From Candidatus Sumerlaeia bacterium (GTDB taxonomy: Bacteria; Sumerlaeota; Sumerlaeia; SLMS01): a DNA stretch of 64,000 nt. This document shows, in pieces, positions 29,207 to 44,596 of the stretch. Where the stretch lies: assembly GCA_038208905.1 (NCBI GenBank), contig JBBQYG010000003.1, forward strand, positions 2,697 to 66,696. The letters are read 5' to 3'. Position numbers and translations under genes: made by a program. Numbering within the stretch: the first letter of the stretch is position 1; each line of letters begins with the position of its first letter. The notes under the pieces are model-generated. The model had not been told where the DNA came from, did not search any database, and worked only from the letters and a program-made list of their open reading frames with translations.

Positions 29207-30259
29207 TTAGGGCCACATGCCCGGCCAGGAGAGCGGCGACGTCGCAGCCGCCGGGTCCAGGCCGTGCATCAGATAGAGGGATTCCACGCCCTGCCCGGCG
29301 CCGCCCTTCAGCAGGTTGTCGATCGTTGCCACCACGTGAAGGCGCCCATCCTCGCCAACGCGCGCCCGGACTTCGGCGTAGTTGGTTCCCGCGATGGAAC
29401 CGCACTCCGGCTCGCGGTCGCCGAGCACCTTCACAAAGGGCCCGCGCTTCGCGTAGAAGTCGCGATAGAGTGCCGCGGTTTCCTTCTGGGACATTGCCCC
29501 GCCCAGTTCCGCCGAAACCGATACCAGAATGCCGCGCACGATCGGCGCGGAGATCGGGATGAAGCTGAGTCCGCCGAGCGCCGAGCCCGCATCGCCCGCG
29601 AGCTGTAGAATTTCTGGCGTGTGCTGGTGCTTCAAGACCTTGTAGGGACGAATCGTCTGAGCGCGTGTGGGATGATGTGTCGTGGCCGTATGCTCGGCCC
29701 CCGCGCCGGAGGAACCGGTCAGCCCCGTGACGACGGGAATGCCGCGCAGCAGCCCCGCGCTCGCCGCCGGAAGAAGCGCCAGATTGATCGCCGTGGCAAA
29801 GCACCCCGGCGCCGCCACCAGCTGGGCGCCTGCGATGCGTTCGGCGTTGAGTTCCGTGCAGCCATACACCGAGCGCGCCAGCAAGTCGGGCCGCGGATGG
29901 TCGTGCTCGTACCAGCGCTTGTAGGACTCCGCGTCGCGCAGCCGGAAATCGCCGCTCAGGTCGATGACGCGCATTCCAGCATCGATGAACCAGGAAAGCG
30001 TCTCCGCCGAGGCGCCGTGTGGGAGCGCGCCGATGATGACGTCCGACTTCTCCGCGATCTCCTCGCGCGATGGGTCCGAAAAACAGAGTTCCGTCAGCCC
30101 ATCCAGATTGCGGTGAACGCCACCCACCGGCGTGCCGCCCTTGGCGCGGCTGGTCGCAAAGGCGATGCGGAACTCGGGCGCGCGCAGCAGAAGTCTGAGA
30201 AGTTCACCGCCGCCGTAGCCCGTCGCTCCCAGGATCGAAACCCGGATCGGAGCGCTCAT
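29207..30259 (-). CDS. argC: N-acetyl-gamma-glutamyl-phosphate reductase
   Basis: Start at internal MSAPIRVSILGATGYGGGELLRLL, where its ATG overlaps the stop of the upstream gene (ATGA). Catalytic-Cys region LVAAPGCFATAINLAL. Confidence 0.9.
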   Translation of the reverse strand: MSAPIRVSILGATGYGGGELLRLLLRAPEFRIAFATSRAKGGTPVGGVHRNLDGLTELCFSDPSREEIAEKSDVIIGALPHGASAETLSWFIDAGMRVIDLSGDFRLRDAESYKRWYEHDHPRPDLLARSVYGCTELNAERIAGAQLVAAPGCFATAINLALLPAASAGLLRGIPVVTGLTGSSGAGAEHTATTHHPTRAQTIRPYKVLKHQHTPEILQLAGDAGSALGGLSFIPISAPIVRGILVSVSAELGGAMSQKETAALYRDFYAKRGPFVKVLGDREPECGSIAGTNYAEVRARVGEDGRLHVVATIDNLLKGGAGQGVESLYLMHGLDPAAATSPLSWPGMWP

Positions 30260-31356
30260 TCCCGGATCTCGACGGTCAGGCCAACTTCCTTCGCGATCAT
30301 GCGGGCAAGCTCCATCGGCTCGTTTCGCGCGTTCGCGCAGGCGATGCCCATCGTGCCGGTGATGTAGGTCGTCCCCACGTCGTTGTCCGTCACGGGTCCG
30401 CTGATCACCTGGGGCTTGTGCTTCAGATCGTCCAGAAAGATCACGCCGCCCCACGCGCCCACCAGATCATTGGCGCACAGGATGCGCGCCGCCGTGCGGT
30501 GAAGGATCGATGGATCCTTCAGAATGCTATCCAGGTGATAGCCGCCGATGACGCCGTCGCCGAGTTCGAGCAGGATCATCTCCGGCTGGCTCTTCTCCAG
30601 CTCCGCGATGACAGAGCGCGCCACCGATGCCAGATCCGTGGCGTTCACCGTGCTTGGCAGTCCGCAATCGAGGAACGAGCACGTCTCCACCGCGCCGTTG
30701 TCGCGCATCGAGAGCACGTCCCTCAGCGCGGCCACGCCGGACAGCTTCCCCGCGGCGATGCGCACTCCGCTATGGCTCAGTATGCGGATTACCTCGCTTG
30801 CGGCATAGGTCTTTCCGCTGTTCATGCACGTGCCCAGAACGAGCACGATAGGCGGGCCCTCTGTGGGAATCGAATCGCACGGCGGCAGCGCGTAGTCGCG
30901 GATGTTCAACAGCTTGCCGTTGCGCGTCGCCTGACCCAGAACCTTGCACGGGATCGGCATTCCAAGCGCGCGGCTGGCCGACTTGCAGATGCCCATCACG
31001 CCGCCGATATTTAGCAGGTGGATCTCGTCGCCCATCGCGATCGTGGGCGGAACGATTCCCATATAGCCGTGCAGCGCCTGGCGCGCGCCCAGCACGCCGA
31101 CCAGGATATTCCCCGAGACCACCTTGGACATGCGCCCCGTGGGGAGTTCCAACTCGCCGTAAACCTTCCGCTCGCCCAGCGCCCGGACGACGATCACCGC
31201 GCCCTCCTCGGCAAGGCACTCTTCGCTCACCTCGACGATGTTGCCCAATCGCGCCGGGGAAGTCGCCGAGCCAATACGGTCCAAACGAATCTTTCGCGTA
31301 AATCGCAGCGGCGATTGCGGGGCATTGGCGGCATCCGGCGACGGCGAATCGGGCAA
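30256..31356 (-). CDS. DUF1611-like protein with non-classical P-loop (VLVLGTCMNSGKTYAASE), first gene of the arg operon
   Basis: 366 aa, two-domain composition. The GxxxxGKT-like motif sits mid-protein. Translationally coupled to argC. The DUF1611 assignment is from memory of family hallmarks, not a search. Confidence 0.5.
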   Translation of the reverse strand: MPDSPSPDAANAPQSPLRFTRKIRLDRIGSATSPARLGNIVEVSEECLAEEGAVIVVRALGERKVYGELELPTGRMSKVVSGNILVGVLGARQALHGYMGIVPPTIAMGDEIHLLNIGGVMGICKSASRALGMPIPCKVLGQATRNGKLLNIRDYALPPCDSIPTEGPPIVLVLGTCMNSGKTYAASEVIRILSHSGVRIAAGKLSGVAALRDVLSMRDNGAVETCSFLDCGLPSTVNATDLASVARSVIAELEKSQPEMILLELGDGVIGGYHLDSILKDPSILHRTAARILCANDLVGAWGGVIFLDDLKHKPQVISGPVTDNDVGTTYITGTMGIACANARNEPMELARMIAKEVGLTVEIRE

Positions 31357-31618
31357 TGGAGGGTGTCCCTTGTCGTGAAAATGAAAATCGCCGCGGCGGA
31401 TGCCCCGGAGACCGGGTCAAGTAGAGGGAAATGGCGGGGTGTCACAATGCCAATTTCGAGCGGGGGAGACGAGCACGGGAGTTCCATCGCGAATCACTCG
31501 ACCGGATTCGACGTCGAGGCGAATTCCGACTTGCCCTAAGACGCAACCAACTGAGTTGCTGCAACAAGGCCGGACTTCAGGAGGTCGTTGCTTGGCAAAG
31601 AAACAGCAACAGAGCCGA

Positions 31619-33730
31619 ATGCTTATCGGCGACATGCCGATCTACGAGGCGATTCGGCAGGGCTCGTCTGGTCAGGCGTCTGGCCCGGACAAGCTGAAGT
31701 TCGAACGGACGGCGCAGGTCCTTGCCGACGCCGCTGTGGAGAGCCACCAGCCGATCAACATCGGCGTGTATGGCAAGTGGGGCACCGGCAAGACCAGCCT
31801 CATGCGGCTGATGATGGAGAAGGTCCGCGACCCCGAGCGCGTCACTCCCGCGATCCCCGCCTGGTTCAATGCTTGGCAATACGAGCGTGACGAACACCTG
31901 ATCGTCCCGTTGATCGCGACGATCAACCGGGAGATCGAGCGTGAGATCGCCCAGATGGAGAAATCCCTACCCGCTCTGGAAAAAGCCAAGAGAGATGTAA
32001 AACAGGCACTCGTCACTGGCGCAAAGAAGCTCCACGCCGCCCTACGCTCCGTCGCCTACGGCTTCGCGATAAGGGGGAAGGTCGGCATTCCGATGATGGC
32101 CGAGGCGGACGTCAACCTTTCAGGGAAGGACATGGTCAACCGCTATCAGGAGCTGACCAAGGACTCCGTTCTTGCACGGAGTCTCTACTTCGACGCCTTC
32201 GAAGAACTGCGAAAGCTTTCCGACGGCAAAGAAATCCCACGTCCCCGCATCGTTGTCTTTGTCGATGACCTCGACCGCTGTTTTCCCGACAAGGCCGTGG
32301 AGCTTCTGGAGGGCATCAAGCTCGTCCTTCACCAGCCCGGCTTCTGCTTCGTTCTGGGCGTCAACGACGGGATCATCCGGGAGTATGTGAGGACCAAGTA
32401 CACCAAGGACTACAACATCGACATCGAGAAGGTTGACTTCAACTACCTCGAGAAGATCGTTCAGGTGGAAGTCCGCGTCCCCGAGCGGGCACCGGATGCC
32501 ATGACGGACTACATCGAAAGCCTACTGTCGGATGCGGGTATGCTAGAGGAGTTTTGCCCGCAAGGCGGCAGGCAAGTCGACAGGGACGTCCTCTTTGCCG
32601 CTGTCGCCATCGCGGGTCGCCAGAATCCGCGAGAGATCGTGCGAAGACTGAACAAGTTGATCCTTGCGTGGCGCCTGCAGGAAGCCGATGAGTTTCAACT
32701 CCTCGATCTCCTGCTCAACGACATCATACCTCCGCAATTGAAGTCCCGGCTGGATTCTCCGGTCGGTAGTGAAGACACCCCTATGACCCTTGCTGAACTT
32801 ATTCTGGCAATTGTCGTCAAGGCCGACCAGCATGCTACCGCAGAGGACTTTGTGGAGCACCTCAAGCGCGAGGTGCTCAGTAATAAATCGATCACCGCCG
32901 CTTACATCGACAAGATTCCCGACCATGAACTGCCCTCCCTCGCCATGCTACGAACCTTGCCCGGCAAGCGGTGGCTTGGGGACAAGAACTTGCGATCAGG
33001 TTTGGCCAAGATTGTTGTCGAAGCCACGGAAACACAGCCGAGTTCGGTCGTCCCGCAGGAGAGTGAACTCGTCCAGCGCGCCATCCGCGAAATCGAGCGC
33101 GACATGGTGGATATTCCCGGGGGTGACTTCATGATGGGGGAGGACGAGAGTAGCGTCGAGGTCAGGCTCTCCGCCTTCAAGATGTCAAAGTACCAAGTCA
33201 CTCAGGATGTCTACGAAGCCATCACGGGAAAAAATCCATCAAAATTCAAAGGCCCAAGGATGCCCGTTGAGTCCGTCTCTTGGAGCGATGCGGAGGTGTT
33301 CTGTGGACGGCTTTCATCATTGACTGGCAGAATCTGGCGCCTGCCGACGGAGGCACAATGGGAGTATGCCTGCAGGGCGGGATCCCAGACAGCGTATTGT
33401 TTTGGTGACGACGGGGCGAAACTCGAAGAATATGCTTGGTTCGAAAAAAACTCCGGGCAATCGACTCATCCGGTCGGCGGGAAGAAGCCCAACAAATTCG
33501 GGCTGTACGACGTGCACGGCAACGTGTGGGAGTGGTGCGCGGATTGGCATGGGTCCTCGCTTCCGGGCGGGACGGACCCGACGGGGCCTTCGTCGGGTTC
33601 GTACCGCGTGGCTCGCGGCGGCAGCTGGTTCGGCAACGCCCAGAACTGCCGGTCGGCCAATCGTTTCATCATCGTCCCGTCGTTCCGGATCAGCTACTTC
33701 GGGTTCCGCGTTCTTTCTCCAGTCCAGTGA
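31619..33730 (+). CDS. KAP-family P-loop NTPase fused to C-terminal FGE-sulfatase (SUMF1/formylglycine-generating-enzyme-like) domain
   Basis: Start at internal MLIGDMPIY (ATG 31619), where the ORF track begins at 31400. Walker A GVYGKWGTGKTSL and KAP-type Walker B IVVFVDDLDRCFPDKAVELLEGIKLVL. C-terminal FGE hallmarks MVDIPGGDFMMG, WRLPTEAQWEYACRAG, GLYDVHGNVWEWCADW, VARGGSWF. No TM segments. Confidence 0.8.
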   Translation: MLIGDMPIYEAIRQGSSGQASGPDKLKFERTAQVLADAAVESHQPINIGVYGKWGTGKTSLMRLMMEKVRDPERVTPAIPAWFNAWQYERDEHLIVPLIATINREIEREIAQMEKSLPALEKAKRDVKQALVTGAKKLHAALRSVAYGFAIRGKVGIPMMAEADVNLSGKDMVNRYQELTKDSVLARSLYFDAFEELRKLSDGKEIPRPRIVVFVDDLDRCFPDKAVELLEGIKLVLHQPGFCFVLGVNDGIIREYVRTKYTKDYNIDIEKVDFNYLEKIVQVEVRVPERAPDAMTDYIESLLSDAGMLEEFCPQGGRQVDRDVLFAAVAIAGRQNPREIVRRLNKLILAWRLQEADEFQLLDLLLNDIIPPQLKSRLDSPVGSEDTPMTLAELILAIVVKADQHATAEDFVEHLKREVLSNKSITAAYIDKIPDHELPSLAMLRTLPGKRWLGDKNLRSGLAKIVVEATETQPSSVVPQESELVQRAIREIERDMVDIPGGDFMMGEDESSVEVRLSAFKMSKYQVTQDVYEAITGKNPSKFKGPRMPVESVSWSDAEVFCGRLSSLTGRIWRLPTEAQWEYACRAGSQTAYCFGDDGAKLEEYAWFEKNSGQSTHPVGGKKPNKFGLYDVHGNVWEWCADWHGSSLPGGTDPTGPSSGSYRVARGGSWFGNAQNCRSANRFIIVPSFRISYFGFRVLSPVQ

Positions 33731-33925
33731 CGTGGGCCAAGGGGCGGAGGCCGGGCGGGGGGGCTGCGGGCCGACGGGACGGAGGCCGAGCGGAGCGAGA
33801 GCGGGCACCCCGACCGAGCCGGAGCGATCCGGGCGGCGGGGACGGTTGACCGGGGGAAGCCCGCCCTTCGCGTTGCGTCCCTACCGCCGCTGGCCAGAGG
33901 CTCCCACCACTCGGAGCCACCCGCC

Positions 33926-35905
33926 TTGCCAGAGCGCCTCTCGCCCCTCCCCGTCGTCCTGCTCGCGCTCTTCGCGGCCCTGCTGGCGTTCTTCCCCATC
34001 GTCAGCGTGGACATCTGGTGGCACCTGAAAACCGGCGACTGGATTCTCGCGGAGGGTCGCCTTCCCACCCGCGACCTGTTCACCTACACCGTTTCGCCGG
34101 AAACGCGGTGGTACGACACCCAATGGCTCTTCCAGGTGGCCGTGGCGCTGGCCTATCGGGCGGGCGGCTGGTCGGGGCTCATCGCGCTGCGCATGGCGGC
34201 GTGCGCCGCGATCGGCGTGGTGCTCTACCTCTGGCTCGCGGAGCGCCGCCTTCCCCCGTGGGCCGCCCTGGCCGCCGGGGCCGTCGTCCTCGCGGCGATG
34301 CGCTACCGATTCTTCCAGCGGCCAGAGCTGTATAGCTTTCTATACATCGCCATTCAGCTCTGGCTCCTCGACCGCGCCAGCAGGCGTGGACGGCTCGAAC
34401 TGCACTGGCTTGTTCCCCTTCAACTCCTGTGGTCGTGGACGCATAGTTCCTGCATCCTCGGAATCTTCGTGGCGGGAGTGTGGTCGATCTGGCAGTTGGT
34501 CAGAAACAAGTCGCTCGTTCTTTCCGCAGCGGGGGAGACCTCGGTCTGGTGGCCCCTTCGCGCGCCGCTCTTCTATCTCGCGGTGGCCGTGCTGGCGACG
34601 CTCGCGAATCCCAATGGAATCGTGCAGTTGACCTACGGATTTGGCGAGGGAACCAAGCTCTTTATCGAGGAGTTCCTACCTCCCCGGCCCGCATTCTTCC
34701 TCAGCCCGATGGGCCTCGTCCTCCTCCTTGCGGCAGGGGGCCTCGGTGGCATCTGGCGCAGGAGGGATGTTTTCCTCGCCGTCCTCGTGGCCGTTTTCCT
34801 GACTCAATCGTTCCGCATGGTGCGCTTCTTTCCCTACGCCGCAATTGCGGCGGCGCCGCTGGTGGCTGCGTGCCTCGTGGAGGTTGCGCGCCTGCTCGCC
34901 CACAAGCCGCGATGGACACGATTCGCCTGTGGGGGATTGGGCCTGGGCGTGTTCGTCGCCCTTGCCGTACTCTCCTTCAGCACGGACCGGAAGACTCCCT
35001 TTCGTGGTGGTACCTCGGGACAGAACGAGCCAGCCGCGGCGGTCGATTTCATCCTGAAGGAGAACATCCCCGGCCACCTCTTCCACCTACCTGATGACGG
35101 CGCCTACCTCCTCTGGCGTCTTGCGCCACGCGGCAAGGTGATGGCCTTCAACGAGACGCGACTGAATGCGGAATTGCTCGAGCGCGTCTCGTCCCTCTCC
35201 GGCGGAACCGCGTGGCGTCGCCTCGCCGACGAGCTCCAATGCACCCATTTCCTCGTGCCGACCAACGCGTTCATCGGCGGCCCAGAGTCGCCCAGCATCG
35301 CCACCATGATCCAGTCATGGCCCGGATGGATTCCGGTTTTCTGGGACGATGACTACATCGTCTTCGCGCGAGAGATCCCGGAACTCGCTGAAATGATCCA
35401 GCGTCGCCGCTCGGGTTTCTTTCCCGAGTGGATTCCTCGCCGCGGCGTCGCGGGCGGGGATCCGGTCGGCTTGCAGACTACCCTGCGCGATCCCGCCGCG
35501 TGGGAGGCGCTTCGCCCCGAGCTCGAGCGCGCCATCGCGGAGAGCCCACACCACTTCTGCGCCGCCTACGCTCTCGGCGTCGGAAACGATCTCCTCGACC
35601 GCAACCCGGTTGAGGCGATGCGGCACTTTCGCATCGCCGAATCCTTCGACTCCCGCGCCCCCGACCTTCTTTCCCTGATGGGAGTTCGTCTTTTCAAGGA
35701 TGGCGATCCCGCGCAGGGAAGGCTCTACCTCTCGCGCGCCGCGCGCAACACTCCGGCGCCGGAGGAGGCCCTTTGCAATCTCGCGATGGCGGAACTCCTC
35801 TACGGCGAAAAGGCCGAGGCGGCGCGCCTTGCAGCCGAGGTTCTGCGCATGGTCCCCAACCACCCCCGCGCCACCGACCTCGCGAAGCGCCTTAACACGC
35901 CTTAG
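33926..35905 (+). CDS. Polytopic membrane protein (~11-13 TM) with C-terminal soluble TPR-like domain
   Basis: 659 aa. The N-terminal 2/3 is hydrophobic (VDIWWHLKTGDWILAEGRLPTRDLFTYT motif in the first loop). The C-terminal ~150 aa is helical-repeat-like (AAYALGVGNDLLDRNPVEAMRHFRIAESFDSRAPDLLSLMG...). Confidence 0.55.
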   Translation: MPERLSPLPVVLLALFAALLAFFPIVSVDIWWHLKTGDWILAEGRLPTRDLFTYTVSPETRWYDTQWLFQVAVALAYRAGGWSGLIALRMAACAAIGVVLYLWLAERRLPPWAALAAGAVVLAAMRYRFFQRPELYSFLYIAIQLWLLDRASRRGRLELHWLVPLQLLWSWTHSSCILGIFVAGVWSIWQLVRNKSLVLSAAGETSVWWPLRAPLFYLAVAVLATLANPNGIVQLTYGFGEGTKLFIEEFLPPRPAFFLSPMGLVLLLAAGGLGGIWRRRDVFLAVLVAVFLTQSFRMVRFFPYAAIAAAPLVAACLVEVARLLAHKPRWTRFACGGLGLGVFVALAVLSFSTDRKTPFRGGTSGQNEPAAAVDFILKENIPGHLFHLPDDGAYLLWRLAPRGKVMAFNETRLNAELLERVSSLSGGTAWRRLADELQCTHFLVPTNAFIGGPESPSIATMIQSWPGWIPVFWDDDYIVFAREIPELAEMIQRRRSGFFPEWIPRRGVAGGDPVGLQTTLRDPAAWEALRPELERAIAESPHHFCAAYALGVGNDLLDRNPVEAMRHFRIAESFDSRAPDLLSLMGVRLFKDGDPAQGRLYLSRAARNTPAPEEALCNLAMAELLYGEKAEAARLAAEVLRMVPNHPRATDLAKRLNTP

Positions 35906-35908
35906 GCC

Positions 35909-37267
35909 CTATTTCCCAATGCAAAACGTGCTGAACACCGCGTCGAGGATATCCTCGTCGAGGCTTCCCTTCCCCAGCAGCGCATCGATTTCCGACAACG
36001 CCAGTGCGAGGTCGAGCACCACGAATTCCGGCGACATGTTCCGCGCGTGCGCCGCGGATGCCGACTGCAACGACTCACGCGCGGCGGAAAGCGCTGCCTC
36101 GTGCCGCGCGCTGGCGATCACCGGCTCGTCGTTGTTCGCATCGTACCCCAAAAAGTGCGCCCTAATCGCCGCCTCCAGCTCGGCGATGCCCTCGCGCGTC
36201 GCCGCGCTGACGCGCAGCGCCCCCTGTATATGCGTGAACGGAGCAAGATCGCACTTGCTCACGACGGGCATGTGCGGGAACTCGCTGACGCGATACTCCT
36301 CTTCCCCGTACCTGGAAACCTCTGCCGCGTCGATCAGATAGAGCACCAGATCCGCCGCCGCCAATTCGTCCCGGGTCTTCGCGATGCCGATCGCCTCGAT
36401 CTCCTCGGCCGCCGACCGGAGCCCCGCCGTATCGATAAGGGTGAGTGGAATTCCTCCCAGGTCGATTGTCGCCTCGATCGTGTCGCGCGTCGTGCCCGGA
36501 TGCGGAGACACGATCGCGCGCTCGCGCCCGACGAGGGCATTGAACAGCGACGACTTTCCCGCGTTCGGCGGTCCCGCCAGCACCACCCGCGCACCACCCG
36601 CGATCACACGCCCGCGGCGCATGGAATCGAGCACCAATGCAAGATCGCGATCCGCATCGCGCAACGCGCCTGCGACCATCTCGCGGGCAAGCGGTGGAAG
36701 TTCCTCTTCCGGATAGTCCACCGCGGCCTCCAGCTCCGCAGTCGCCTGCACCAGCCGCGCGCGGGTGGCCAGCAGCCTTCGCGAGAGGCCACCACCGAGC
36801 TGGTGCAGCGCAACGCGCCGTGCCGCGTCCGTTGCCGACGCCGACAGCGCCGCCACCGATTCGGCCTGCGCCAGATCCAGCTTTCCATTGAGGAACGCGC
36901 GCCGTGTGAACTCGCCTGGCTGCGCGGCCCGCGCGCCCGCCGCGATCAATGCCCGCATGGCCCGATCCACGATGGCGGGTGAGCCGTGCAAGTGGAACTC
37001 CGCCATGTCTTCGCCGGTGTAGGAGGCGGGCGCCACCCACTGCACCGCGAGGCACTGGTCGATGGTCTCGCCACCCGCCGCATCGCGCAGATGCCCCAGC
37101 ACCATGCGCGCCGGGTCTAGTTCCGAATGCCGGGAAAAAACTGATTCAACCAACGCCGCCGTGCCCGCCCCGCTCACTCGCACGATGGCAATTGCCCCGG
37201 CGCCCGGCGCCGTGGCGGGGGCCGCAATCGTGTCGCGCGGCGATGCGGTGGCCGTGGCGCGCGCCAT
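35909..37267 (-). CDS. mnmE: tRNA modification GTPase MnmE (TrmE)
   Basis: G-domain GPPNAGKSSLFNAL, DTAG, and C-terminal ...FCIGK motif. 452 aa. Confidence 0.9.
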   Translation of the reverse strand: MARATATASPRDTIAAPATAPGAGAIAIVRVSGAGTAALVESVFSRHSELDPARMVLGHLRDAAGGETIDQCLAVQWVAPASYTGEDMAEFHLHGSPAIVDRAMRALIAAGARAAQPGEFTRRAFLNGKLDLAQAESVAALSASATDAARRVALHQLGGGLSRRLLATRARLVQATAELEAAVDYPEEELPPLAREMVAGALRDADRDLALVLDSMRRGRVIAGGARVVLAGPPNAGKSSLFNALVGRERAIVSPHPGTTRDTIEATIDLGGIPLTLIDTAGLRSAAEEIEAIGIAKTRDELAAADLVLYLIDAAEVSRYGEEEYRVSEFPHMPVVSKCDLAPFTHIQGALRVSAATREGIAELEAAIRAHFLGYDANNDEPVIASARHEAALSAARESLQSASAAHARNMSPEFVVLDLALALSEIDALLGKGSLDEDILDAVFSTFCIGK

Positions 37268-37270
37268 GGG

Positions 37271-38350
37271 CTAGGGAGCCTCGATGCTGAACTCTTCTGC
37301 CTGGCGCGATTCGTTCTCCACGCCCAGCCAGAACCGGTCGGCGTCCACCGATACCTCGATCGGCTCCAGCGCGTATCCGTCCGCCAGGATGATATCGGTG
37401 TCCTCGCGCAGCTTCACCAGCCGGCGCCGTTCCTCCTCGCGGAACTTCACCGCATACTCCTGCATACCCGGCGTCTCGAAATCGATGACCTGGAACAAGT
37501 GGACGCCATCCTCAAGGACGATAGGGGCGGAAGTCTCCCCCATCTTGAGTTCGCTCACCGAGTCCCAGATCGCGGGCTTCACCTGCTCTCTGCGAAACCA
37601 CCCCAGCGCGCCGCCGGACTTCTGCGTCTGGCGGTCGTCGCTGTGGAGCCGGGCCGCCTCGGTGAAGTCCAGTCCCGCCGCGATGTCGCGCCGGACACGG
37701 AGCGCGCGCTCGCGGGCGTCCGTGATCGCGGCCTCGTCACTCCCCGCTGGCAGCACGAGGATGTGTGCGATGCGTACCTCCGAGGCCTCGCTCACCTTTC
37801 CATCGAATGGCGTCGCGCCTCCGAGGTCCGCATAGACCCCCACACCATCTCGGACAAGGATGTTATTGCGAGCCTGAGTTTTCACCCAGTCGCGGAACTC
37901 CGTGGGGTCGATTCCGGCCTCTCCCATGAGCGCAACCAGCGCCACCGCGCCACCGGCCAGATCGGCATAGCGCTCCATCGCCGACTGGTATCGGAGCGCG
38001 ACCGCCTCCTCCCGCGGCGGAGTCACTTGCAGCTCCGCCCAGGCGGCCAGCATGGCGTCATTAACAGCCTGAGTCAGGTACTTGCGGCGGAGCGCCTCGT
38101 CGGCCTCGCCCTCCCGGTCGGGGTTCAGAAGCCGGCTCTCGAACACCCACAAGTCCAGATCCCGCTGGGTATAAACCCGGCGCTGGGCCACTGCAACCAC
38201 CCGGTCGGCCTCGCCCCGGGCGGCAAGGATGGGTGTCGGGGATGATGCCAAAAGCAATATCCACAGGGCTCTGGAAACGCCGAATCGCGTCACGCGGTCG
38301 AAAATATTCGCCGTAAATCGACGGCTCGTCATGGTCTCATTGACTCGCAA
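37271..38350 (-). CDS. Parvulin-type peptidyl-prolyl cis-trans isomerase (SurA/PpiD-like), secreted
   Basis: Signal sequence present. Parvulin domain VRIAHILVLPAG...GGALGWFRREQVKPAIWDSV...GETSAPIVLEDGVHLFQVID. Confidence 0.75.
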   Translation of the reverse strand: MRVNETMTSRRFTANIFDRVTRFGVSRALWILLLASSPTPILAARGEADRVVAVAQRRVYTQRDLDLWVFESRLLNPDREGEADEALRRKYLTQAVNDAMLAAWAELQVTPPREEAVALRYQSAMERYADLAGGAVALVALMGEAGIDPTEFRDWVKTQARNNILVRDGVGVYADLGGATPFDGKVSEASEVRIAHILVLPAGSDEAAITDARERALRVRRDIAAGLDFTEAARLHSDDRQTQKSGGALGWFRREQVKPAIWDSVSELKMGETSAPIVLEDGVHLFQVIDFETPGMQEYAVKFREEERRRLVKLREDTDIILADGYALEPIEVSVDADRFWLGVENESRQAEEFSIEAP

Positions 38351-38440
38351 GGGACTCTCTGGCTCAATTCACCCTGATCTAAGCGGACCCCGCGCGGTGA
38401 ACCCTCGCGTCGCCAACCCAGTTACCGGAGGCGCTCCATC

Positions 38441-39253
38441 ATGGGCGGCTGGTTGCTCCTGATACCCCCGTCAGAGTCCAAGAAAACGCCGCCGAACGGC
38501 AATGCGAATTACCCCGACATTCGCCGGGATAAGAAGCGTAATTCCTTTCCCGAACTCGATGTCGCGCGTGACGTGCTCATCTCCCAGCTCATCGCCGCCA
38601 TCGACCGCGGCACGGGGCTCGACCGACTCTTCGAGATGACCGGAGAGACGCTTGGCGAGGCCATCGCGTGGAATCGGCTTCTCCCCAATGCCCCCACCGC
38701 CGCCGCGCGAGACCTCTATTCCGGCGTCATGTACGAGGCCATCGATTTCGGCACGCTCAAGATGGCCGAGAAGAAGCTCTTCGACAAGAACGCCCTCATC
38801 ATCAGCGGCCTCTTCGGCCTTCTGCGCCCGTCGGATTGGATTCCCGCCTACAAGCTCAAGATCGGCGCCAACCTGGGCGGAGCCGTGGGCAAGGTCGCAC
38901 ACTTCTGGCGTCGCCCCGTCAGCGAGCTGCTGCGCCGCGAGCTGCGCGGAAAAATCGTGTGGGATTTCCTGCCCGATCAGCACCGCCGCGTGTGGGACAG
39001 CACCGGCGAAGTCGTCGCCCACCACCAGGTGAAATTCGTCAAGCGCATCATCCGCAGCGGCGTCGCCGAATACAAGACGATCAGCCACCACTCCAAGGCG
39101 CTCAAGGGCTCCCTGATTCGTCACCTACTCGCTAAAAACGCGGAATCGCCGAAGGACCTGCACGACTTCGTGCACCCCGACGGCTACAGCTATAATCGCG
39201 AATTGAGCGTGAACAGCAAGCGAGAGAGCACGCTGGTCTTCGCGGCGGATTGA
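38441..39253 (+). CDS. yaaA: YaaA/UPF0246 (DUF328) family protein
   Basis: The N-terminus LLLIPPSESKK matches the family LILxSPAKT start. 270 aa. Confidence 0.7.
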   Translation: MGGWLLLIPPSESKKTPPNGNANYPDIRRDKKRNSFPELDVARDVLISQLIAAIDRGTGLDRLFEMTGETLGEAIAWNRLLPNAPTAAARDLYSGVMYEAIDFGTLKMAEKKLFDKNALIISGLFGLLRPSDWIPAYKLKIGANLGGAVGKVAHFWRRPVSELLRRELRGKIVWDFLPDQHRRVWDSTGEVVAHHQVKFVKRIIRSGVAEYKTISHHSKALKGSLIRHLLAKNAESPKDLHDFVHPDGYSYNRELSVNSKRESTLVFAAD

Positions 39254-39281
39254 TCGCTCAACCCGCCGCGAATCCGGCATC

Positions 39282-41177
39282 CTAGTTACCCGAGACGTTC
39301 TTCCCGCCACCGACCTTGGTGCGCTCGGCCTTCTTGCGGTTCTCTGAATTAAGGATCGCCTTGCGGACACGGATGGTCTCGGGGGTGACCTCCACGAGTT
39401 CGTCCTCGGCGATCCACTCCATCGCCTGATCAAGGTTCAGGCGGCGCGGCACATCGAGCGAGTTGTCCAGTTCCTTGTTGGCGGAACGGTGATTGGTGAG
39501 CTGCTTCTTGCGAGCCGGGTTGCAGAGCATGTCGTCGGGGCGCGAATGCTCGCCGATCACCATGCCCTCGTAAACCTTCTCCATCGGCCCGATGAACATC
39601 TGGCCGCGGATCTGGATACCCTCGATGCTGTATCCCGTCGCGTCGCCCGTGTCGGTGCTGATCATGGAGCCGCGGTTGCGCGAGACCACATCGCCCCTCC
39701 ACGGCGTATAGCCCGTAAAGCGCGACGCCATGATGCCCAGGCCGCGGGTATCCGTAAGGAACTCGTTGCGATAGCCGATCAGGCCGCGCGTCGGGATGTC
39801 GAATTCCATGCGGACGATGCCGGTGCCCGTCGCGTTCATGGTTGTCATCTCGCCCTTGCGCTTTGCCAGCTTCTCGATCACCGCGCCCTGATAGATCTCG
39901 GGGACATCGATGACCAGCTTCTCCAGCGGCTCCAGCAGCTTCCCGTCGGCATCGTGCTGCGTGATAACCTCGGGGCGCGAAACACAGAGTTCCATGCCCT
40001 CTCGGCGCATTTCCTCGATCAGGATGCCAAGGTGCAGCTCTCCGCGGCCAGAAACCTTGAGTCCGTCGGCGCGGCCAATGTCCTCCACGCGAAGGGCCAC
40101 GTTGACCTTCGTCTCGCGATCCAGGCGGTCGCGCAACTGGCGCAGCGTGATCGCGCGGCCTTCCTGGCCGGCGAAGGGACCGCTGTTCACGAGGAAGAAC
40201 ATCGAGACCGTCGGCTCCTCGATCTCAAGCGGCGGGAACGCCGGGTTCAGCATTTCCGGCGAGCTGAAAGTGTCGCCGATCATGATGTCTTCGGGACCGG
40301 AGATCCACACGATGTCGCCGGCGGAAATCTCCTCGACCTCCGTCCGCTCCAGGCCGCGCGTCACCCACAGGTGGGTCGAGCGCTCGTTCTTCGTTGCCAC
40401 AACCTCCCACTCGCCCGACTGCTCTTCGTGGTTCTTCCAGCGCACCGACGTCCGCGCAAACCATGCGCCGACGTGATGACGGCCCTGGGTGATGCGCCCG
40501 CATCCGATGCGGCCGATGTAGTCATTCCACGCCAGCGTGCTCACCTGCATCAGGAACGGCGCGTCAAGGTCGGCCTTGGGCGGGGGAACGTACTGGACGA
40601 TTGTCTCGAAAAGGTGCTCCATCCCCTCGTGCTTGTCCTTCTCCAAATCGCGGACGAGCCAGCCGGCGAGGCCGGAGCCATACAGCACCGGAAAGTCGAT
40701 CTGCTCGTCGGTGGCGCCAAGCTCGATGAACAGCTCGAACGTCTTCTCCAGCGCCTCCTTCGGAGTCGCCTGGGGGCGATCCACCTTGTTCACGATCACG
40801 ATGGGCCTCAGTCCCAGCTTCAGCGAACGCATCAGCACATACCGCGTCTGGGGCATCGGCCCCTCATTGGCGTCCACCAGCAAGAGCACCGAATCCACCA
40901 TCGAGAGCACTCGCTCCACCTCGCCGGAAAAGTCGGCGTGGCCCGGCGTGTCGATGATGTTGATCATATAGTCCTGCCACGATACCGAGCAATGCTTTGC
41001 CCGGATCGTGATGCCGCGTTCCTTCTCCAGCTCGTTGTTGTCCATCACGCGTTCCTGCACGCGCGCATTGTCGCGGAACAGGTGGGCCTCGCGAAAGATC
41101 GAGTCGATCAGGGTCGTCTTGCCGTGGTCGATGTGGGCGATAATGGCCAGATTGCGGATTTTCTCAACGGCGGTCAT
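39282..41177 (-). CDS. typA: Translational GTPase TypA/BipA
   Basis: [24 protein letters not shown] motifs. EPTVSMFF and ...ELVEVTP..IRVRK C-terminal signature. Domain II carries a divergent ~9-aa insertion relative to E. coli BipA. Confidence 0.9.
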
Positions 41178-41299
41178 GGAGAACTTTCGATTAGGTGGAA
41201 TATTGTGGCATCGAACGCCCGCGGGGCTCCGAAGCCGCCGGTAGGGACCACACCCCCCGGGCCCGCGTCAAAGGGCATTCTGGCTACTTTGTTGAGTCT

Positions 41300-42475
41300 T
41301 CACCGCCAAACGGCAGGGCGCTTTACCAGCACTCCATCGATCACCTGCTCCAATTCCTTCGCCCGGCGGGCCCAGGTCCAATCGGCCTCCACCCGGCGGC
41401 GTGCCTCCGTGCCCATCTCCCGGCGTGTCGCGCCGTCCTCGATTAATTCCCTCAGATTGGCGCAAAGTGCTGCGACGTCGTCCGCCTCGCAGAGCAACCC
41501 ATTGACCCCGTGCTCCACCAATTGCTCCGTGCCGGGAATCCGGGTTCCGATCACTGGCAGGCCGCAGGCCGCCGCCTCCAGAACCACATTCGGCATCCCC
41601 TCGTAGCGCGACGGAAACGCGAAGATATCCGCCCGGCGATAGGCCCCGGCGATCTCCTTGCGGCTCACGAGGCCAAGAAACTTCACGCGGTCGACAATGC
41701 CGAGGCGGCGCGCCAACTCCCCGAATTCCGCGAGCCTCGGCCCCGTGCCCGCAATATCGAGCCGCCACTCCCGCGAGTTGCCACGCAGTGCCGCCAGCGA
41801 GTTGAGAAGCGTATCCACCCCCTTCTGCGTCGTGAGGCGACCCGCGAAGAGAATCGCAACTGGCCCTGTGCGAGCGGCGCGACCCCCCGGCGGGGGAGTA
41901 AACGCCTGCGGATCGATCCCATTGTAGAGCACGCCGACCGCCTTGTGGGGGAACGCGCGCTGGGCAAGGTCCCTTAGCCCATCGCTATTCGCCAGCGCCA
42001 CCGCCGACCGATTCACGATCAGGCGATTCAGCCAAAGTGTCGCGCGATGCAGCCTCTCCAGCTCCCCCGGCAGCCATCCCGGCACATCGCCGCCGCGAAA
42101 CAGCACCACGTGCGGAATGCCCCTCACCAGCGACGCTGGAAATGCGGCAAGACCAGAGGGAATCGAATGAAAGGAAACGATCACTTCGGGTCGCGGCCCG
42201 CCGCGCAGCATCAGATACGGGACCGCCGCCGCCACGAAGGACATCATTTCCACGGGATTCGATTCACCGCGCTGCTTCCGCAGGCAAGGCAGTCGCCGAA
42301 TGGCGAGCCCGCCGCGCCGCGCCAACGCTGGCAACCGACCGTATCCAGCCGTGACAACCTCGACACGGTGCCCGAGCCTCGCCAGTTCCCGCGCCAGAAA
42401 GGACGAGCCGGTGCTGGCCCCGCCGCCCAGCGGGGGAAATTCATAGTTGCAGATCAGGATTCGGCGGCGGGTCAC
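41300..42475 (-). CDS. Glycosyltransferase family 4 (GT-B)
   Basis: RILICNYEFPPLGGG N-terminal motif. EGMPNVVLEAAACGLPVI (E-x7-E region). Confidence 0.75.
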   Translation of the reverse strand: MTRRRILICNYEFPPLGGGASTGSSFLARELARLGHRVEVVTAGYGRLPALARRGGLAIRRLPCLRKQRGESNPVEMMSFVAAAVPYLMLRGGPRPEVIVSFHSIPSGLAAFPASLVRGIPHVVLFRGGDVPGWLPGELERLHRATLWLNRLIVNRSAVALANSDGLRDLAQRAFPHKAVGVLYNGIDPQAFTPPPGGRAARTGPVAILFAGRLTTQKGVDTLLNSLAALRGNSREWRLDIAGTGPRLAEFGELARRLGIVDRVKFLGLVSRKEIAGAYRRADIFAFPSRYEGMPNVVLEAAACGLPVIGTRIPGTEQLVEHGVNGLLCEADDVAALCANLRELIEDGATRREMGTEARRRVEADWTWARRAKELEQVIDGVLVKRPAVWR

Positions 42476-42535
42476 GATGCTCGGTCTTTGCTGCTTGATT
42501 TCGCCACGTTTAGCGGCGATCTTGCCCCCCCGGGG

Positions 42536-42556
42536 CCAGCCTGATCTGGCTTTTTC
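42536..42556 (+). promoter_or_regulatory. Terminator-like hairpin plus T5 tract in the folE 5' leader (candidate attenuator/riboswitch expression platform)
   Basis: GCCAG-CCTGAT-CTGGC followed by TTTTT, preceded by the CCCCGGGG palindrome. No upstream plus-strand gene that it could terminate. Confidence 0.3.
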
Positions 42557-42697
42557 GGTCCCTTTTCAGTAGGCACATTTCTCGTTACTCCCCATTGCAG
42601 GTACCGCGTCGTGCAGCCCATCAGAGATCCGGACATGCTGCCGAGCGAGGCCACCGAGGCGGCGCCCCGCCAGAATCCCCCGCAAGGACGCGAGCCA

Positions 42698-43330
42698 ATG
42701 TCAGTCGAATACATCGAGCCGCAGTTCCCCCAGGAAGACGACGAACTGAGCCCCGCCCACGGCTCGCTGGGAATCGAAAAGCAAATCCGCGAGATACTCG
42801 TCAAGATGGGCGAAGACCCAGAGCGCGAGGGCCTGCTCAAGACGCCGGGCCGCGTCGACCGCGCCATGGCCTTCCTCACCTCCGGCTACCACGCCGACAT
42901 CGGCAAGATCGTCAACGGCGCTATTTTCGAGGAGGCCGACGGCGAGCGTTTCGACGAGATGGTACTCGTGAAGGACATCGAGTTCTACTCCATGTGCGAG
43001 CACCACATGATCCCCTTCTTTGGCCGGGTCCATATCGCGTACATACCCAACCGGAAGGTCGTGGGACTCTCCAAGCTGCCGCGCATCGTGGAGGTCTTCG
43101 CGCGAAGGCTCCAACTCCAGGAACGCCTGACACACCAGATCGCCAACTGCGTGGACGAGGTTCTCAGCCCACGCGGAGTCGCCGTCGTCGCCGAGGCCCG
43201 CCACATGTGCATGTGCATGAGGGGCATCCAGAAGCAGGGCTCCTCGACCACCACCTCCGCCATGATGGGCGTCTTTCGCGAGAACCCCCAAACGCGCAAC
43301 GAGTTCCTCAGCCTCATCCGCGGCGTATAG
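42698..43330 (+). CDS. folE: GTP cyclohydrolase I
   Basis: [21 protein letters not shown] and [16 protein letters not shown] are hallmark FolE motifs. Start at MSVEYIEP (alternative upstream ATG at 42611). Confidence 0.9.
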
Positions 43331-43333
43331 ACA

Positions 43334-44575
43334 TCACCCAAACAGGTCTGGCGCGCTATCGTCGCTGACCACCGCCTGCCGGCGCCCATCCTTGAACTGG
43401 AGGCTGATCGGAAGGTTCTTCTTTAACTCGTCCGCCGAAGAAATGACGCGCTCGTTGGAGGCGCGCCGGACGACCGCGTAGCCCTTCGAGAGAATCAACT
43501 CCGGGTTGTGACCATCCAGCGCGCCGTCGAGCCGCTCCACACGCGCGCGGGCCCGCTCCAGCCTACGCAGGACGACTTCGGGCATCCGCTTCATCGCCAG
43601 ATCGACGCGTTGCTGGTATTCGCGCAGCAGCAGCTCGGGCCTCCTCAGCGCATGACTCTGGAGTAGTCCAGTCACCCGGGCGCGCTCGCTCTTCAGGTGT
43701 GACTCCACCACGCGCCGGGCCCGGGCCACGCGGTCGAGCAATCGCTCGCGCAGGTCCACATAGCCCGCGCTTGCCAACTCTGCCGCCGCCGACGGCGTCG
43801 GCGCGCGGAGGTCCGCCACAAAGTCCGAAATGCTGAAATCCGTCTCGTGTCCCACGGCGGAAATGATCGGCACCGGCGACGCGTGGATGACGCGCGCAAG
43901 CTGTTCGCTATTGAATTCCCACAGGTCCTCCGCCGAGCCGCCCCCGCGCCCCACGATGATCACATCCACGCGGCCCGACTTCGCGAGTCTCGACACCGCG
44001 TTGGAGATTTCCGCCGCCGCACCCTCGCCCTGAACCCGAGCCGGCCATAGCAGCACCGGCAGAAACGGCGCGCGCCGGCCCAGGATGTTCAGGATGTCGC
44101 GGATCACCGCCCCCGTGGGCGACGTAACCACGCCGATGCGTGTCGGGTACAGCGGCAGCGGACGCTTTCGCGCGCCATCGAATAGGCCCTCTGCCTCCAG
44201 CTTCGCCTTCAGCGCCTGAAACTTCGCCCACAACTCTCCCTCGCCGGCGCGCTTCATCCCGTCCACCAGTAGTTGGTACTGCCCGCGCTTCTCAAAAACC
44301 GACACGCGCCCCCGGCACTCGACCTTGTCGCCCTCGCGCGGATCGAACGACATCCTGCCGCGGCTTCCCTTCCAGATCACGCAACCCAACAGCGCGCCCT
44401 CGTCCTTGATCGAGAAGTAGGCGTGCCCTGACGAAGCCACCATCCACGAACTGATCTCCCCGCTTACCACCACCGAGGCGAATCGCGCCTCCAACTCTCC
44501 GCGAATCAGCGCGGAAAGCTGGCTCACCGTCAGGATGTCCGAGGCGGCGCCCGCCTTGGAGAGGATATTGGCCAT
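43334..44575 (-). CDS. xseA: Exodeoxyribonuclease VII large subunit
   Basis: OB-fold N-terminus (VSGEISSW...GHAYFSIKDE), IGVVTSPTGAVIRD, IIVGRGGGSAEDLW. Confidence 0.85.
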   Translation of the reverse strand: MANILSKAGAASDILTVSQLSALIRGELEARFASVVVSGEISSWMVASSGHAYFSIKDEGALLGCVIWKGSRGRMSFDPREGDKVECRGRVSVFEKRGQYQLLVDGMKRAGEGELWAKFQALKAKLEAEGLFDGARKRPLPLYPTRIGVVTSPTGAVIRDILNILGRRAPFLPVLLWPARVQGEGAAAEISNAVSRLAKSGRVDVIIVGRGGGSAEDLWEFNSEQLARVIHASPVPIISAVGHETDFSISDFVADLRAPTPSAAAELASAGYVDLRERLLDRVARARRVVESHLKSERARVTGLLQSHALRRPELLLREYQQRVDLAMKRMPEVVLRRLERARARVERLDGALDGHNPELILSKGYAVVRRASNERVISSADELKKNLPISLQFKDGRRQAVVSDDSAPDLFG

Positions 44576-44596
44576 CGCTGATGAACTCCTCTCTGT

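Follow-up and report, generated by a model that had tools for sequence, protein, structure and literature searches.

A KAP NTPase–FGE-fold fusion protein with a hypervariable C-terminus, a predicted remote target of a DGR retroelement in an uncultured bacterium

The locus and its gene

The stretch of DNA analysed here (64 kb; hereafter the window) contains a gene whose product joins a KAP P-loop NTPase, a helical domain and a C-terminal FGE-sulfatase fold, in this order, on a single soluble chain (Table 1). The open reading frame extends over 31400..33730 of the forward strand. Translated from 31619, the protein matches database entry P0001 exactly, and this start is backed by the N-termini of 39 homologues in an alignment of 40. 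The alternative start at the in-frame ATG at 31400 would prepend 73 residues, none of which is conserved.

Table 1. Features of the KAP–FGE gene and its 3' flank (window coordinates)
Feature	Position	Strand	Basis
CDS, KAP NTPase / CLec(FGE-fold) protein, 703 aa	31619..33730	+	ORF list; stop codon counted in
KAP family P-loop NTPase domain, aa 31-345	31709..32653	+	Pfam PF07693, E=1.8e-34
Walker A GKWGTGKTS, aa 52-60	31772..31798	+	Read from sequence
Soluble helices inserted between the Walker motifs, aa 95-202	31901..32224	+	AlphaFold model
Walker B DDLDRC, aa 216-221	32264..32281	+	Read from sequence; invariant in family
All-helical domain after NTPase core, aa 350-471; disordered linker, aa 472-480	32666..33031	+	AlphaFold model
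C-type-lectin / FGE-sulfatase-fold domain, aa 483-703, predicted non-catalytic	33065..33727	+	Pfam PF03781, TvpA match
DGR variable region (VR) and invariant 3' end	33614..33741	+	Variable bases seen at 33626-33698
GC-rich 3' flank accompanying the VR, target-recognition candidate	33742..33860	+	Similarity to L090 flank

The upstream neighbours argB, OTCase and argC are divergent from the gene, and downstream of it lie a membrane protein gene, mnmE, a PPIase gene, yaaA and typA. This annotation agrees with the sequence-only reading, which had described a lone gene divergent from arginine genes within a housekeeping neighbourhood. No defence genes, mobile elements or defence island were seen in the neighbourhood of this copy, no sulfatase gene lies near it, and neither Rfam nor tRNA scanning of the window gave a match. 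The GC content is 0.56-0.59 over the gene and 0.62-0.69 in its flanks. The nearest relative contig, with a TypA 82% identical, is not syntenic with the window, so it carries no information on insertion of the gene. The nearest named relatives of the window TypA are found in Poribacteria, Sumerlaeota and Phycisphaerae, at 72-76% identity.

The KAP NTPase half

The N-terminal half scores 119.8 bits against the Pfam KAP_NTPase model, for which the cut-off is 20, in line with the family assignment made earlier from its two Walker motifs. Walker A fits the pattern GxxGxGK[ST]; its residues G52, W54, G55, G57, K58, T59 and S60 are unchanged in 40 homologues, as is the Walker B context VFVDDLDRC (aa 213-221), which fits the pattern hhhhDDLDR.

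The insertion between the two motifs occupies the place of the transmembrane helices present in many KAP proteins. In the AlphaFold model it is formed by three long soluble helices (95-119, 122-155 and 169-202), the tip (154-177) being modelled with low confidence. No transmembrane segment is found in the 703-residue protein, the maximum Kyte–Doolittle mean over 19 residues being 1.29; the absence of transmembrane insertions, already proposed for this variant, is thus borne out. The helical domain that follows the NTPase core is conserved in the closest KAP–FGE homologues, with aligned stretches reaching aa ~460-470. The ~25-30 residues that precede the core contain no detected domain, and no effector domain was recognised in the whole protein with Pfam or in the AlphaFold model.

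Two class assignments were considered for the NTPase and rejected. Domains of the STAND clade (NACHT, NB-ARC etc.) are represented only by sub-threshold AAA_16 and ATPase_2 matches; the NTPase is a KAP, with no STAND domain above threshold, and the protein was not placed among STAND/NLR-like receptors. QatA (Qat anti-phage system), PifA (F plasmid) and PDC-S20 match the protein only partially, within the common KAP core of its N-terminal part, and membership of these systems was likewise rejected. The core is homologous to QatA and PifA over ~300 aa (E=4e-35 and E=4e-29, respectively), but the QatA match reaches 121.5 bits against an equivalog cut-off of 600, covers the N-terminal 300 aa only, and no qatBCD genes occur near the window gene. 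The C-terminal halves of QatA and PifA are unlike that of the window protein, and PifA is membrane-associated.

The FGE-fold half

Pfam PF03781 (FGE-sulfatase) matches aa 494-699 with E=9.2e-45 and 153.7 bits, above its cut-off of 23.3, so that both profiles expected by the sequence-only reading, PF07693 and PF03781, are detected. The motifs which that reading had listed, GDFMMG, WRLPTEAQWEYACRAG, GNVWEWCADW and RGGSWF, are all present. Its "complete FGE domain" of ~270 aa proved correct as to the fold; the domain is smaller, at ~220 aa (483-703), and is not complete as an enzyme, as seen at Gly672 (below).

The domain is modelled with pLDDT >90, and Foldseek matches it to FGE structures with E ~1e-15. 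Its best match in the PDB, by sequence and by fold, is TvpA (Treponema denticola variable protein 1, PDB 2y3c), with E=2e-39 versus ~1e-20 for true FGEs and an rmsd of 1.9 Å versus 3.2-5.3 Å. TvpA, whose C-type-lectin fold is of the FGE type, is the target of a DGR and shares 34% identity with aa ~490-700 of the window protein. In both proteins, the VR lies at the extreme C-terminus on a GGSW...C...R...P..R...GFR scaffold. TvpA is a lipoprotein. It is a stand-alone protein with its DGR adjacent, whereas the window domain shares its chain with a cytoplasmic KAP NTPase, and no DGR lies within 30 kb.

True FGEs (human SUMF1, T. curvata and S. coelicolor) have the same fold and 27-30% identity over the domain. 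The two copper-binding cysteines of FGE are catalytic. Alignment to 6s07 sets its CHESYC opposite G672-NAQN-C677, which places Gly672 at the position of the first copper-binding cysteine: one FGE catalytic cysteine is lost. Among homologues, the Gly672 column is hypervariable, while the second cysteine of the CxxxxC pair, C677, is kept; the groove region as a whole is hypervariable, in contrast to FGE. From these residues, we predict a non-catalytic domain that has the FGE fold without FGE chemistry and is not a sulfatase-maturing enzyme.

The strong Pfam match, the NCBI names of homologues and the retained C677 would also accommodate an ATPase-regulated enzyme of the SUMF1/EgtB/PvdO type, performing formylglycine formation or another oxidative modification. 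Such an enzyme is extremely improbable here. Its first catalytic cysteine would be a glycine at a hypervariable position, and its active-site region would coincide with the VR. Furthermore, the NCBIfam equivalogs all score far under their cut-offs (e.g. PvdO, 85 bits vs 500; EgtB, 44 vs 360), there is no DinB or iron-binding domain, and the neighbourhood lacks a sulfatase. The label "SUMF1/EgtB/PvdO family nonheme iron enzyme", which the family carries in public annotation, is likely to mislead.

A hypervariable region at the C-terminal tip

What the sequence-only reading missed about this half is a DGR variable region at its C-terminal tip, formed by the last ~35 codons of the gene, which differs between assemblies of the locus. 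A search by way of TypA led to the same locus in two further assemblies (L093 and L094). Over 12,299 nt, L093 and the window differ at 87 positions, of which 22 fall within the 73 nt at 33626-33698; this corresponds to a mismatch rate of 30% in the segment versus 0.54% elsewhere (Fisher p=5e-31). Hypervariation at this locus is restricted to the VR. L093 and L094 share one VR and may come from the same reads; there are two independent alleles at the locus, plus one on a paralogue.

The differences follow a codon pattern. All 22 between L093 and the window lie at positions 1-2 of NNC/NNT codons, and NNC accounts for 13 of the 14 variable codons. The third allele, found on an unrelated FGE gene (contig L090), shows 16 mismatches in 128 nt with none at position 3, versus 13 of 23 mismatches at position 3 in the 111 nt just upstream of its VR (p=3e-4 vs VR). 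Scaffold and third positions are identical among the three alleles across ~130 nt. Because strains diverged by 0.54% differ at 22 VR sites without third-position or scaffold changes, we place the rewriting after a very recent split.

Some features of the assemblies could point to a source other than a DGR, namely assembly artefacts or gene conversion among paralogous FGE cassettes: both short contigs break at the VR, the VR-like segment at the end of L094 is not collinear and perhaps chimeric, and the paralogous cassette of L090 has the same flanks. Conversion of diverged paralogues or chimeric assembly is nevertheless an unlikely source, because neither would confine the differences of three otherwise identical alleles to positions 1-2 of the same codons. 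The pattern is also like that of the verified TR–VR pairs of relatives described below, and we consider such an origin very unlikely.

The 3' flank of the gene is ~88% identical to that of the L090 FGE gene, although the adjacent genes differ, and may act as a target-recognition element. Folded as DNA, 33700-33900 scores no better than shuffles (z=0.33), and neither a hairpin nor a cruciform was detected downstream of the VR.

Template repeat and retroelement

DGR linkage is observed in relatives of the gene. At 55 related KAP–FGE loci, a template repeat (TR) is present in 12, with a TR–VR identity of 79-91%, and a TR, RT or Avd in 16. The mismatches in the 12 TR loci fall mostly at TR adenines (9-21 of 9-26 per pair); those off TR adenines number up to 9 in the least clean TRs (e.g. 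L011 and L051), and those at VR adenines 0-1. NNC codons make up 83-86% of the hypervariable VR columns family-wide, whether or not a TR is visible, and 20-22% of the variable columns just upstream.

At the window locus, the codon patterns suggest that mutation of the VR is adenine-specific. A single inferred template fits all three alleles (...AGG AAC AAC AAC GCC CAG AAC TGC CGG TCG GCC AAT CGT AAC AAC AAC AAC CCG ACG AAC CGG AAC AAC AAC ATC GGG...) and is built like the real TRs of relatives. The predicted TR is CGCGGCGGCAGCAGGAACAACAACGCCCAGAACTGCCGGTCGGCCAATCGTAACAACAACAACCCGACGAACCGGAACAACAACATCGGGTTCCGCGTT. No TR was found in the window by a whole-window repeat search and blastn of the last 260 nt with a word size of 7 (best E=0.35), and tblastn of the window with six RTs and three Avds of relatives gave no matches. 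An exact scan of viral contigs for the inferred TR found no match. A metagenome scan, which found L090, used a pattern with CCGTCG where the inferred TR has CCGACG and could find only VR alleles of the TCG type.

Since TR, RT and Avd are all absent from the window, we infer that the KAP–FGE gene is a remote target, on which a DGR acts in trans from elsewhere in the genome. Their absence from the 64 kb would also fit a fossil or orphan target, diversified in the past and left with a frozen VR after loss of the retroelement from the genome, and degraded DGRs do occur in relatives (e.g. L006, which has a TR and no RT). Against this stand the 22 VR differences between strains that have diverged so little, none at third positions or in the scaffold, and the NNC signature, which has not decayed. 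A frozen VR is therefore improbable, and action in trans remains our reading of the locus.

Relatives and known systems

The KAP–FGE pairing is widespread: ~90 clusters among the top 120 matches combine KAP and FGE, in many phyla. At E<=1e-30, 373 clusters were matched. Full-length KAP–FGE proteins were not found on 72,556 plasmids and 50,697 phages, which hold only the separate halves. In other relatives, the same KAP module is joined to LRR, pentapeptide or TIR modules.

Proteins of this kind have been described computationally. In the NTPase–FGS conflict systems, the place of the STAND NTPase can be taken by a KAP ATPase, and a DGR RT and a four-helix accessory protein either adjoin the NTPase–FGS gene or are encoded elsewhere in the genome (Kaur, Burroughs, Iyer, Aravind, eLife 2021, PMC8195603). 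The window protein conforms to their arrangement, in which a C-terminal FGS is fused to an NTPase (STAND, KAP or AP-GTPase). These systems usually include an N-terminal effector or effector-associated domain and partner genes, whereas in the window protein ~25 residues precede the KAP domain, and no conserved partner gene accompanies it. The clade-5 DGR targets of multicellular bacteria were named putative antigen sensors, with intracellular sensing proposed, and KAP appears as an alternative NTPase among those of clade 5D (Doré et al., PNAS 2024, PMC10907252). A central NTPase and a DGR-diversified C-terminal CLec are common to these sensors and the window protein; theirs have the DGR in cis and usually two targets, whereas the window gene, from an uncultured bacterium, is a lone target, predicted to be remote from its DGR. 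The window gene is thus a further member of a predicted class, that of KAP–FGE proteins with DGR diversification (Kaur 2021, Doré 2024). The earlier suggestion that a KAP–FGE system is uncharacterised stands as regards function established by experiment, but the architecture is neither undescribed nor rare.

Experimental evidence is available for other KAP proteins. EF_KAP and three metagenomic single-gene KAP P-loop NTPases protect against phage, and this defence needs the NTPase, the C-terminal region and Walker B (PLoS Biol 2026, PMC13552941). These proteins resemble the window protein in placing a KAP NTPase before a variable C-terminal module on one polypeptide. They differ in having transmembrane helices and a membrane anchor, a C-terminal fold that is unassigned and no reported hypermutation, while the window protein is soluble and carries a VR on a lectin fold.

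The genomic contexts of homologues, which the sequence-only reading proposed to inspect for defence islands, give a divided picture. Some relatives adjoin NACHT–FGE paralogues, integrases, prophage-like genes and OLD/AAA_15-type genes, while homologues L004, L008 and L009 lie in housekeeping contexts, and no partner gene is conserved across seven homologue neighbourhoods. The protein might be a hypermutated sensor-NTPase without an immune role. Its variable lectin face would then bind ligands of self or of the environment (to recognise kin or surfaces, to tune regulation, or to sense nutrients or signals), and its KAP module would regulate a housekeeping process. The housekeeping contexts, including the arginine-biosynthesis and translation genes around the window gene, favour such a role, as do the lack of an effector domain and the fact that the functions of cellular DGR targets are putative (PMC10907252). 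We regard it as rather unlikely, given the relatives in conflict-type contexts, the fusions of the KAP module to TIR and LRR and the repeated links between the KAP family and phage defence (PMC13552941).

Proposed function

On balance, we think it probable that the gene encodes an immune-type, DGR-diversified cytoplasmic receptor-NTPase, in which a variable lectin face senses an invader ligand and signals to the KAP switch. The protein would be a single-chain receptor, with the N-terminal KAP P-loop NTPase as a switch or oligomerisation module and the ligand-binding face of the lectin-fold domain encoded by ~16 codons within the last 35 residues. An error-prone RT would copy the AAC-rich template repeat and randomise its adenines, and the mutated cDNA would replace the VR. 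Repeated rewriting of the lectin face in this manner would generate a repertoire of binding specificities.

The ligand would be present in the cytoplasm and would most likely be a phage molecule or one from another invader. Its binding would be passed on to the KAP NTPase, leading to an NTP-dependent conformational change or assembly and to an output that we expect to be protective. Because the protein has no recognisable effector domain, the output would come from the NTPase together with the helical insertion, or from an unlinked partner. The idea, put forward in the sequence-only reading, of an FGE-fold module as a ligand sensor on a conflict-type NTPase is predicted to be correct.

More tentatively, the protein may be a self-contained, adaptive-type receptor without an effector, in which a remote retroelement re-randomises the lectin face and the KAP module is itself the output, through its conserved helical insertion, NTP consumption or assembly. 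If true, this would constitute a minimal "hypermutating antigen receptor plus switch" in a core genome, and DGRs would serve dispersed immune receptors in trans.

Among the bacterial analogues of hypermutating antigen receptors that have been proposed so far, DGR-diversified NTPase–lectin proteins come closest. The locus presented here is a clean minimal case, with one soluble polypeptide, no partner genes, variation between near-identical strains and a TR sequence that can be predicted exactly. It suggests that a retroelement encoded elsewhere can act on a gene seemingly isolated in a housekeeping neighbourhood, and that neighbourhood-based defence scans would miss such genes.

Domain organization of the KAP-FGE protein

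The KAP-FGE gene lies in one long ORF, and its product is identical to the database protein P0001. The chosen start aligns the N-terminus with those of 39 homologues; starting from the upstream ATG (31400) would prepend 73 residues that show no conservation. All motifs quoted in the sequence-only reading, including Walker A and Walker B, are present in the translated sequence, and Pfam detects both domains that it had named. The KAP NTPase is intact. No hydrophobic segment is found in the 703-residue protein (maximum 19-residue Kyte–Doolittle mean of 1.29), which is soluble and lacks a signal peptide. In the AlphaFold2 model (mean pLDDT 82, pTM 0.60), a three-helix insertion replaces the TM helices of many KAP proteins, in agreement with the proposed lack of a transmembrane insertion. 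The observation as a whole was correct, and the finding proved to be more specific than had been thought.

Features of the KAP-FGE gene, its surroundings and related loci
Feature	Location	Strand	Remarks
Long ORF	window 31400-33730	+	
KAP-FGE gene	window 31619-33730	+	ATG at 31619; 703 aa
KAP_NTPase	aa 31-345		Pfam E=1.8e-34, far over curated cut-off
Walker A	G52-S60		invariant in family
P-loop core insertion, three helices	aa 95-202		AlphaFold2; site of TM helices in many KAPs
Walker B	D216-C221		invariant in family
All-helical domain	aa 350-471		AlphaFold2; short disordered linker follows
Lectin-type domain	aa 483-703		AlphaFold2, very confident
FGE-sulfatase	aa 494-699		Pfam E=9.2e-45, far over curated cut-off
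365-aa gene	window 30256-31353	-	no Pfam match at E<=1e-4
659-aa multi-pass membrane protein	window 33926-35902	+	no Pfam match at E<=1e-4
Glycosyltransferase gene	window 41300-42475	-	adjacent to typA
L093 alignment	window 33613-45911		ends at the variable region
Mismatch cluster	window 33626-33698		73 nt
GC-rich 3' flank	window 33731-33860		~125 nt; L090 970-1093 (minus)
L094 non-collinear end	L094 11813-11943		= window 33503-33633; 131 nt
NACHT/NPHP3-FGE and KAP-FGE genes	L006 4836-10448, 10809-11051		one common TR
Three FGE-fold genes	L002 8001-15566		same genes on L003
23S_rRNA_IVP (Avd-like) fragment	L009 1348-1527		59 aa

The closest solved structure by sequence is TvpA, a variable protein of Treponema denticola (2y3c; E=2e-39), with true FGEs and PvdO reaching only ~1e-20. 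A fold search also places TvpA first (E=6e-19, rmsd 1.9 Å, 34% identity), followed by FGEs at rmsd 3.2–5.3 Å. TvpA itself is targeted by a diversity-generating retroelement (DGR). In FGE, two copper-binding cysteines are catalytic. The CHESYC segment of the T. curvata FGE, which contains them, aligns to G672-N-A-Q-N-C677. This puts a glycine at the first cysteine position, and that column is hypervariable in the homologue alignment. The domain had been described as a complete FGE; the substituted cysteine and the TvpA match point instead to a lectin-fold module that is predicted to be catalytically dead, in a protein that would not be a catalytic FGE. An enzyme is, with this glycine, an explanation of slight probability. 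All NCBIfam enzyme equivalogs (PvdO, EgtB, OvoA and SenA) score far under their cut-offs.

Template repeats in the KAP-FGE family

In a search of 5.8 billion proteins, about 90 clusters among the top 120 matches, for which architecture was tallied, combine KAP and FGE, with 40–47% identity along the whole protein. Their sources include Planctomycetota, Fibrobacterota, Hydrogenedentota, KSB1, Desulfobacterota, Ignavibacteria and Brocadiia, so the architecture is not rare. A more distant KAP-FGE clade (27–30% identity) is common in Anaerolineales. Elsewhere the KAP half (40–45% identity) carries C-terminal LRR, pentapeptide repeats or TIR, and residues 1–480, run against the full set of 1.84 billion representatives, gave 373 clusters at E<=1e-30.

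Of 55 non-redundant KAP-FGE loci screened for copies of the gene 3' end, twelve contain a non-coding, AAC-codon-rich copy with 79–91% identity over 71–138 nt. Mismatches to the gene fall mostly at copy adenines, and all or nearly all do so in the cleaner pairs; loci L011 and L051 have up to 9 elsewhere. Gene adenines account for almost none (0–1) across the 12 copies. These copies therefore qualify as DGR template repeats (TR). Adjoining ORFs encode RVT_1 reverse transcriptases (RT) and bAvd/23S_rRNA_IVP accessory proteins (Avd), with an HRDC protein in one locus. Extension by tblastn reveals at least one DGR component in 16 of the 55 loci, many of which end close to the gene. Among hypervariable columns within the 35 C-terminal residues, NNC codons make up 83% where no TR is visible and 86% where one is, against 20% and 22% in equally variable columns just upstream (p=1e-23). 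This excess, independent of a TR in view, indicates that most family members bear an imprint of adenine mutagenesis on AAC codons.

Several loci contain more than one FGE-bearing gene. On L006, a 5.4-Mb MAG chromosome, the common TR sits 190 nt past the KAP-FGE stop, and no RT is found within 8 kb. Present instead are a C-terminal piece of Cas6, several integrases, Mu F and IS110, which gives the appearance of a mobile island whose DGR is degraded or served in trans. Contigs L002 and L003 carry consecutive genes for KAP-FGE (689 aa), NACHT-FGE (1020 aa) and a 694-aa FGE protein, with different N-terminal halves and 3' ends 64–70% identical; the 18 kb examined contains no TR. Adjoining FGE-bearing genes in L010, L015, L016, L021 and L041 have 3' ends 82–89% identical over 126–185 nt, which suggests two targets per TR; no TR lies on the L010, L015 and L021 fragments. 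On L009, an Avd-like fragment next to a DDE transposase may be left over from a DGR; the KAP-FGE gene 6.5 kb downstream of it has no nearby TR.

Hypervariation at the window gene

No TR was found in the 64-kb window, and tblastn detected neither RT nor Avd there. In the variable region (VR) of the gene, 13 of 14 variable codons are NNC, the remaining one being AAT, against an NNC background of 39.5% in the rest of the gene (binomial p=5e-5). Two short contigs, L093 (ENA ERZ27246989) and L094 (JGI 3300007799), also encode the window TypA; both are collinear with the window and end at the VR. L093 is 99.29% identical to the window, with 87 mismatches and no gaps. The mismatch cluster holds 22 of these (30% versus 0.54% elsewhere; Fisher p=5e-31), each at codon position 1 or 2, and the 195-nt spacer past the stop codon shows one SNP. 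L093 and L094, with one VR in common, are possibly not independent.

A third allele came from JGI metagenomes, where a scaffold-pattern scan picked out contig L090; it stands at the 3' terminus of another FGE gene, whose upstream DNA is ~45% identical and whose neighbours differ. Over the final 128 nt of that gene, stop codon included, 16 bases are unlike those of the window, and every one is at codon position 1 or 2; in the preceding 111 nt, 13 of 23 differing bases are at third positions (p=3e-4). A single template, inferred from the alleles, fits all three: CGC GGC GGC AGC AGG AAC AAC AAC GCC CAG AAC TGC CGG TCG GCC AAT CGT AAC AAC AAC AAC CCG ACG AAC CGG AAC AAC AAC ATC GGG TTC CGC GTT. 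The real L006 TR, RGGSWNNNARNCRAANRNNNNPSNRNNNIGFR, has a like form.

These comparisons indicate that the window VR was rewritten after the split of strains 0.5% diverged, and we infer that the responsible DGR lies outside the window. A frozen fossil of a DGR target has, beside such recent rewriting, little probability. Remote DGR targets are on record (PMC8195603).

The GC-rich flank past the stop is ~88% identical on L090, with a 13-nt indel, although the FGE gene it follows there is otherwise unrelated and has different neighbours; a cis element may move together with the VR. The flank has no significant secondary structure (z=0.33).

Both assemblies break right at the VR (L093 at window 33613, the collinear part of L094 at 33634), as would be expected from heterogeneity in the population or from a repeat that paralogous targets have in common. 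The L094 end resembles the first two-thirds of another VR (..RVFRSGSWGADALFSRSARRASTGPSGR), fused in frame to the window-type VR, and shows non-adenine differences from the inferred TR. Either this end of the contig is chimeric, or the community holds a genuine recombinant or a second family of VRs. For the locus as a whole, an artefact is a minor alternative.

Genomic context and the immune reading

As had been noted, the gene stands alone amid core genes. On the opposite strand upstream are argB, OTCase, argC and the 365-aa gene; downstream, the 659-aa membrane protein precedes mnmE, PPIase, yaaA and typA. GC is 0.56–0.59 across the gene and 0.62–0.69 in its surroundings. The 414-aa argC call overlaps the 365-aa gene but has Pfam domains only from residue 70 on, so argC probably starts further downstream than called. 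The typA-adjacent gene, with precomputed matches to GT4-conflict (PF20706) and ordinary GT4/GT1 families, probably encodes an ordinary glycosyltransferase. The window TypA has 82% identity to its best other sequence and 72–76% to named Poribacteria, Sumerlaeota, Phycisphaerae and Planctomycetota MAG proteins.

The gene very probably encodes a DGR-diversified KAP-lectin protein, ending in a lectin-fold domain that is predicted to be non-catalytic and diversified at its tip. The variable face would bind a cytoplasmic ligand, occupancy would be passed on via the helical domain, and the NTPase would shift conformation or assemble, setting off a response. We lean, with some reserve, towards invader sensing. 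We count as support the NACHT-FGE paralogues adjoining homologues in L002 and L006, the mobile elements of L006, prophage-like genes and an AAA_15/21 gene near the L007 homologue, the TIR and LRR fusions of the KAP core, and PADLOC matches to QatA, PifA and PDC-S20. Single-gene KAP proteins with C-terminal modules protect against phage in a Walker-B-dependent manner (PMC13552941), and QatA binds DNA and forms 7–8-mers; both count towards the same role. Several copies, like the window gene, sit amid housekeeping genes. This placement, the lack of an effector domain in the window protein and of a partner gene conserved among the homologue neighbourhoods examined count against an immune role; a non-immune sensor is a reading that we consider unlikely but worth keeping in mind. 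Identity with QatA, PifA or a STAND protein was rejected for the window protein.

Relation to described systems

The system had been thought uncharacterised. Kaur et al. 2021 define NTPase-FGS conflict systems (PMC8195603), and Doré et al. 2024 list a KAP NTPase among clade-5D DGR targets, termed putative antigen sensors (PMC10907252); the architecture and its DGR link have therefore been described computationally. A 2026 STAND-receptor survey notes FGE-sulfatase-like sensors and does not mention KAP. In contrast to described targets, the window locus has no N-terminal effector or adaptor, its protein is soluble, and the gene stands alone among core genes as a remote target.

The window gene thus belongs to a known, computationally predicted class, recognisable to a DGR or defence specialist, and is not a new one. 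Because the host is uncultured, this instance alone makes the question of ligand and output little more tractable. Its value lies in correcting a probably misleading public annotation, in locus-level evidence suggestive of trans hypermutation, and in an exact prediction of the missing template.
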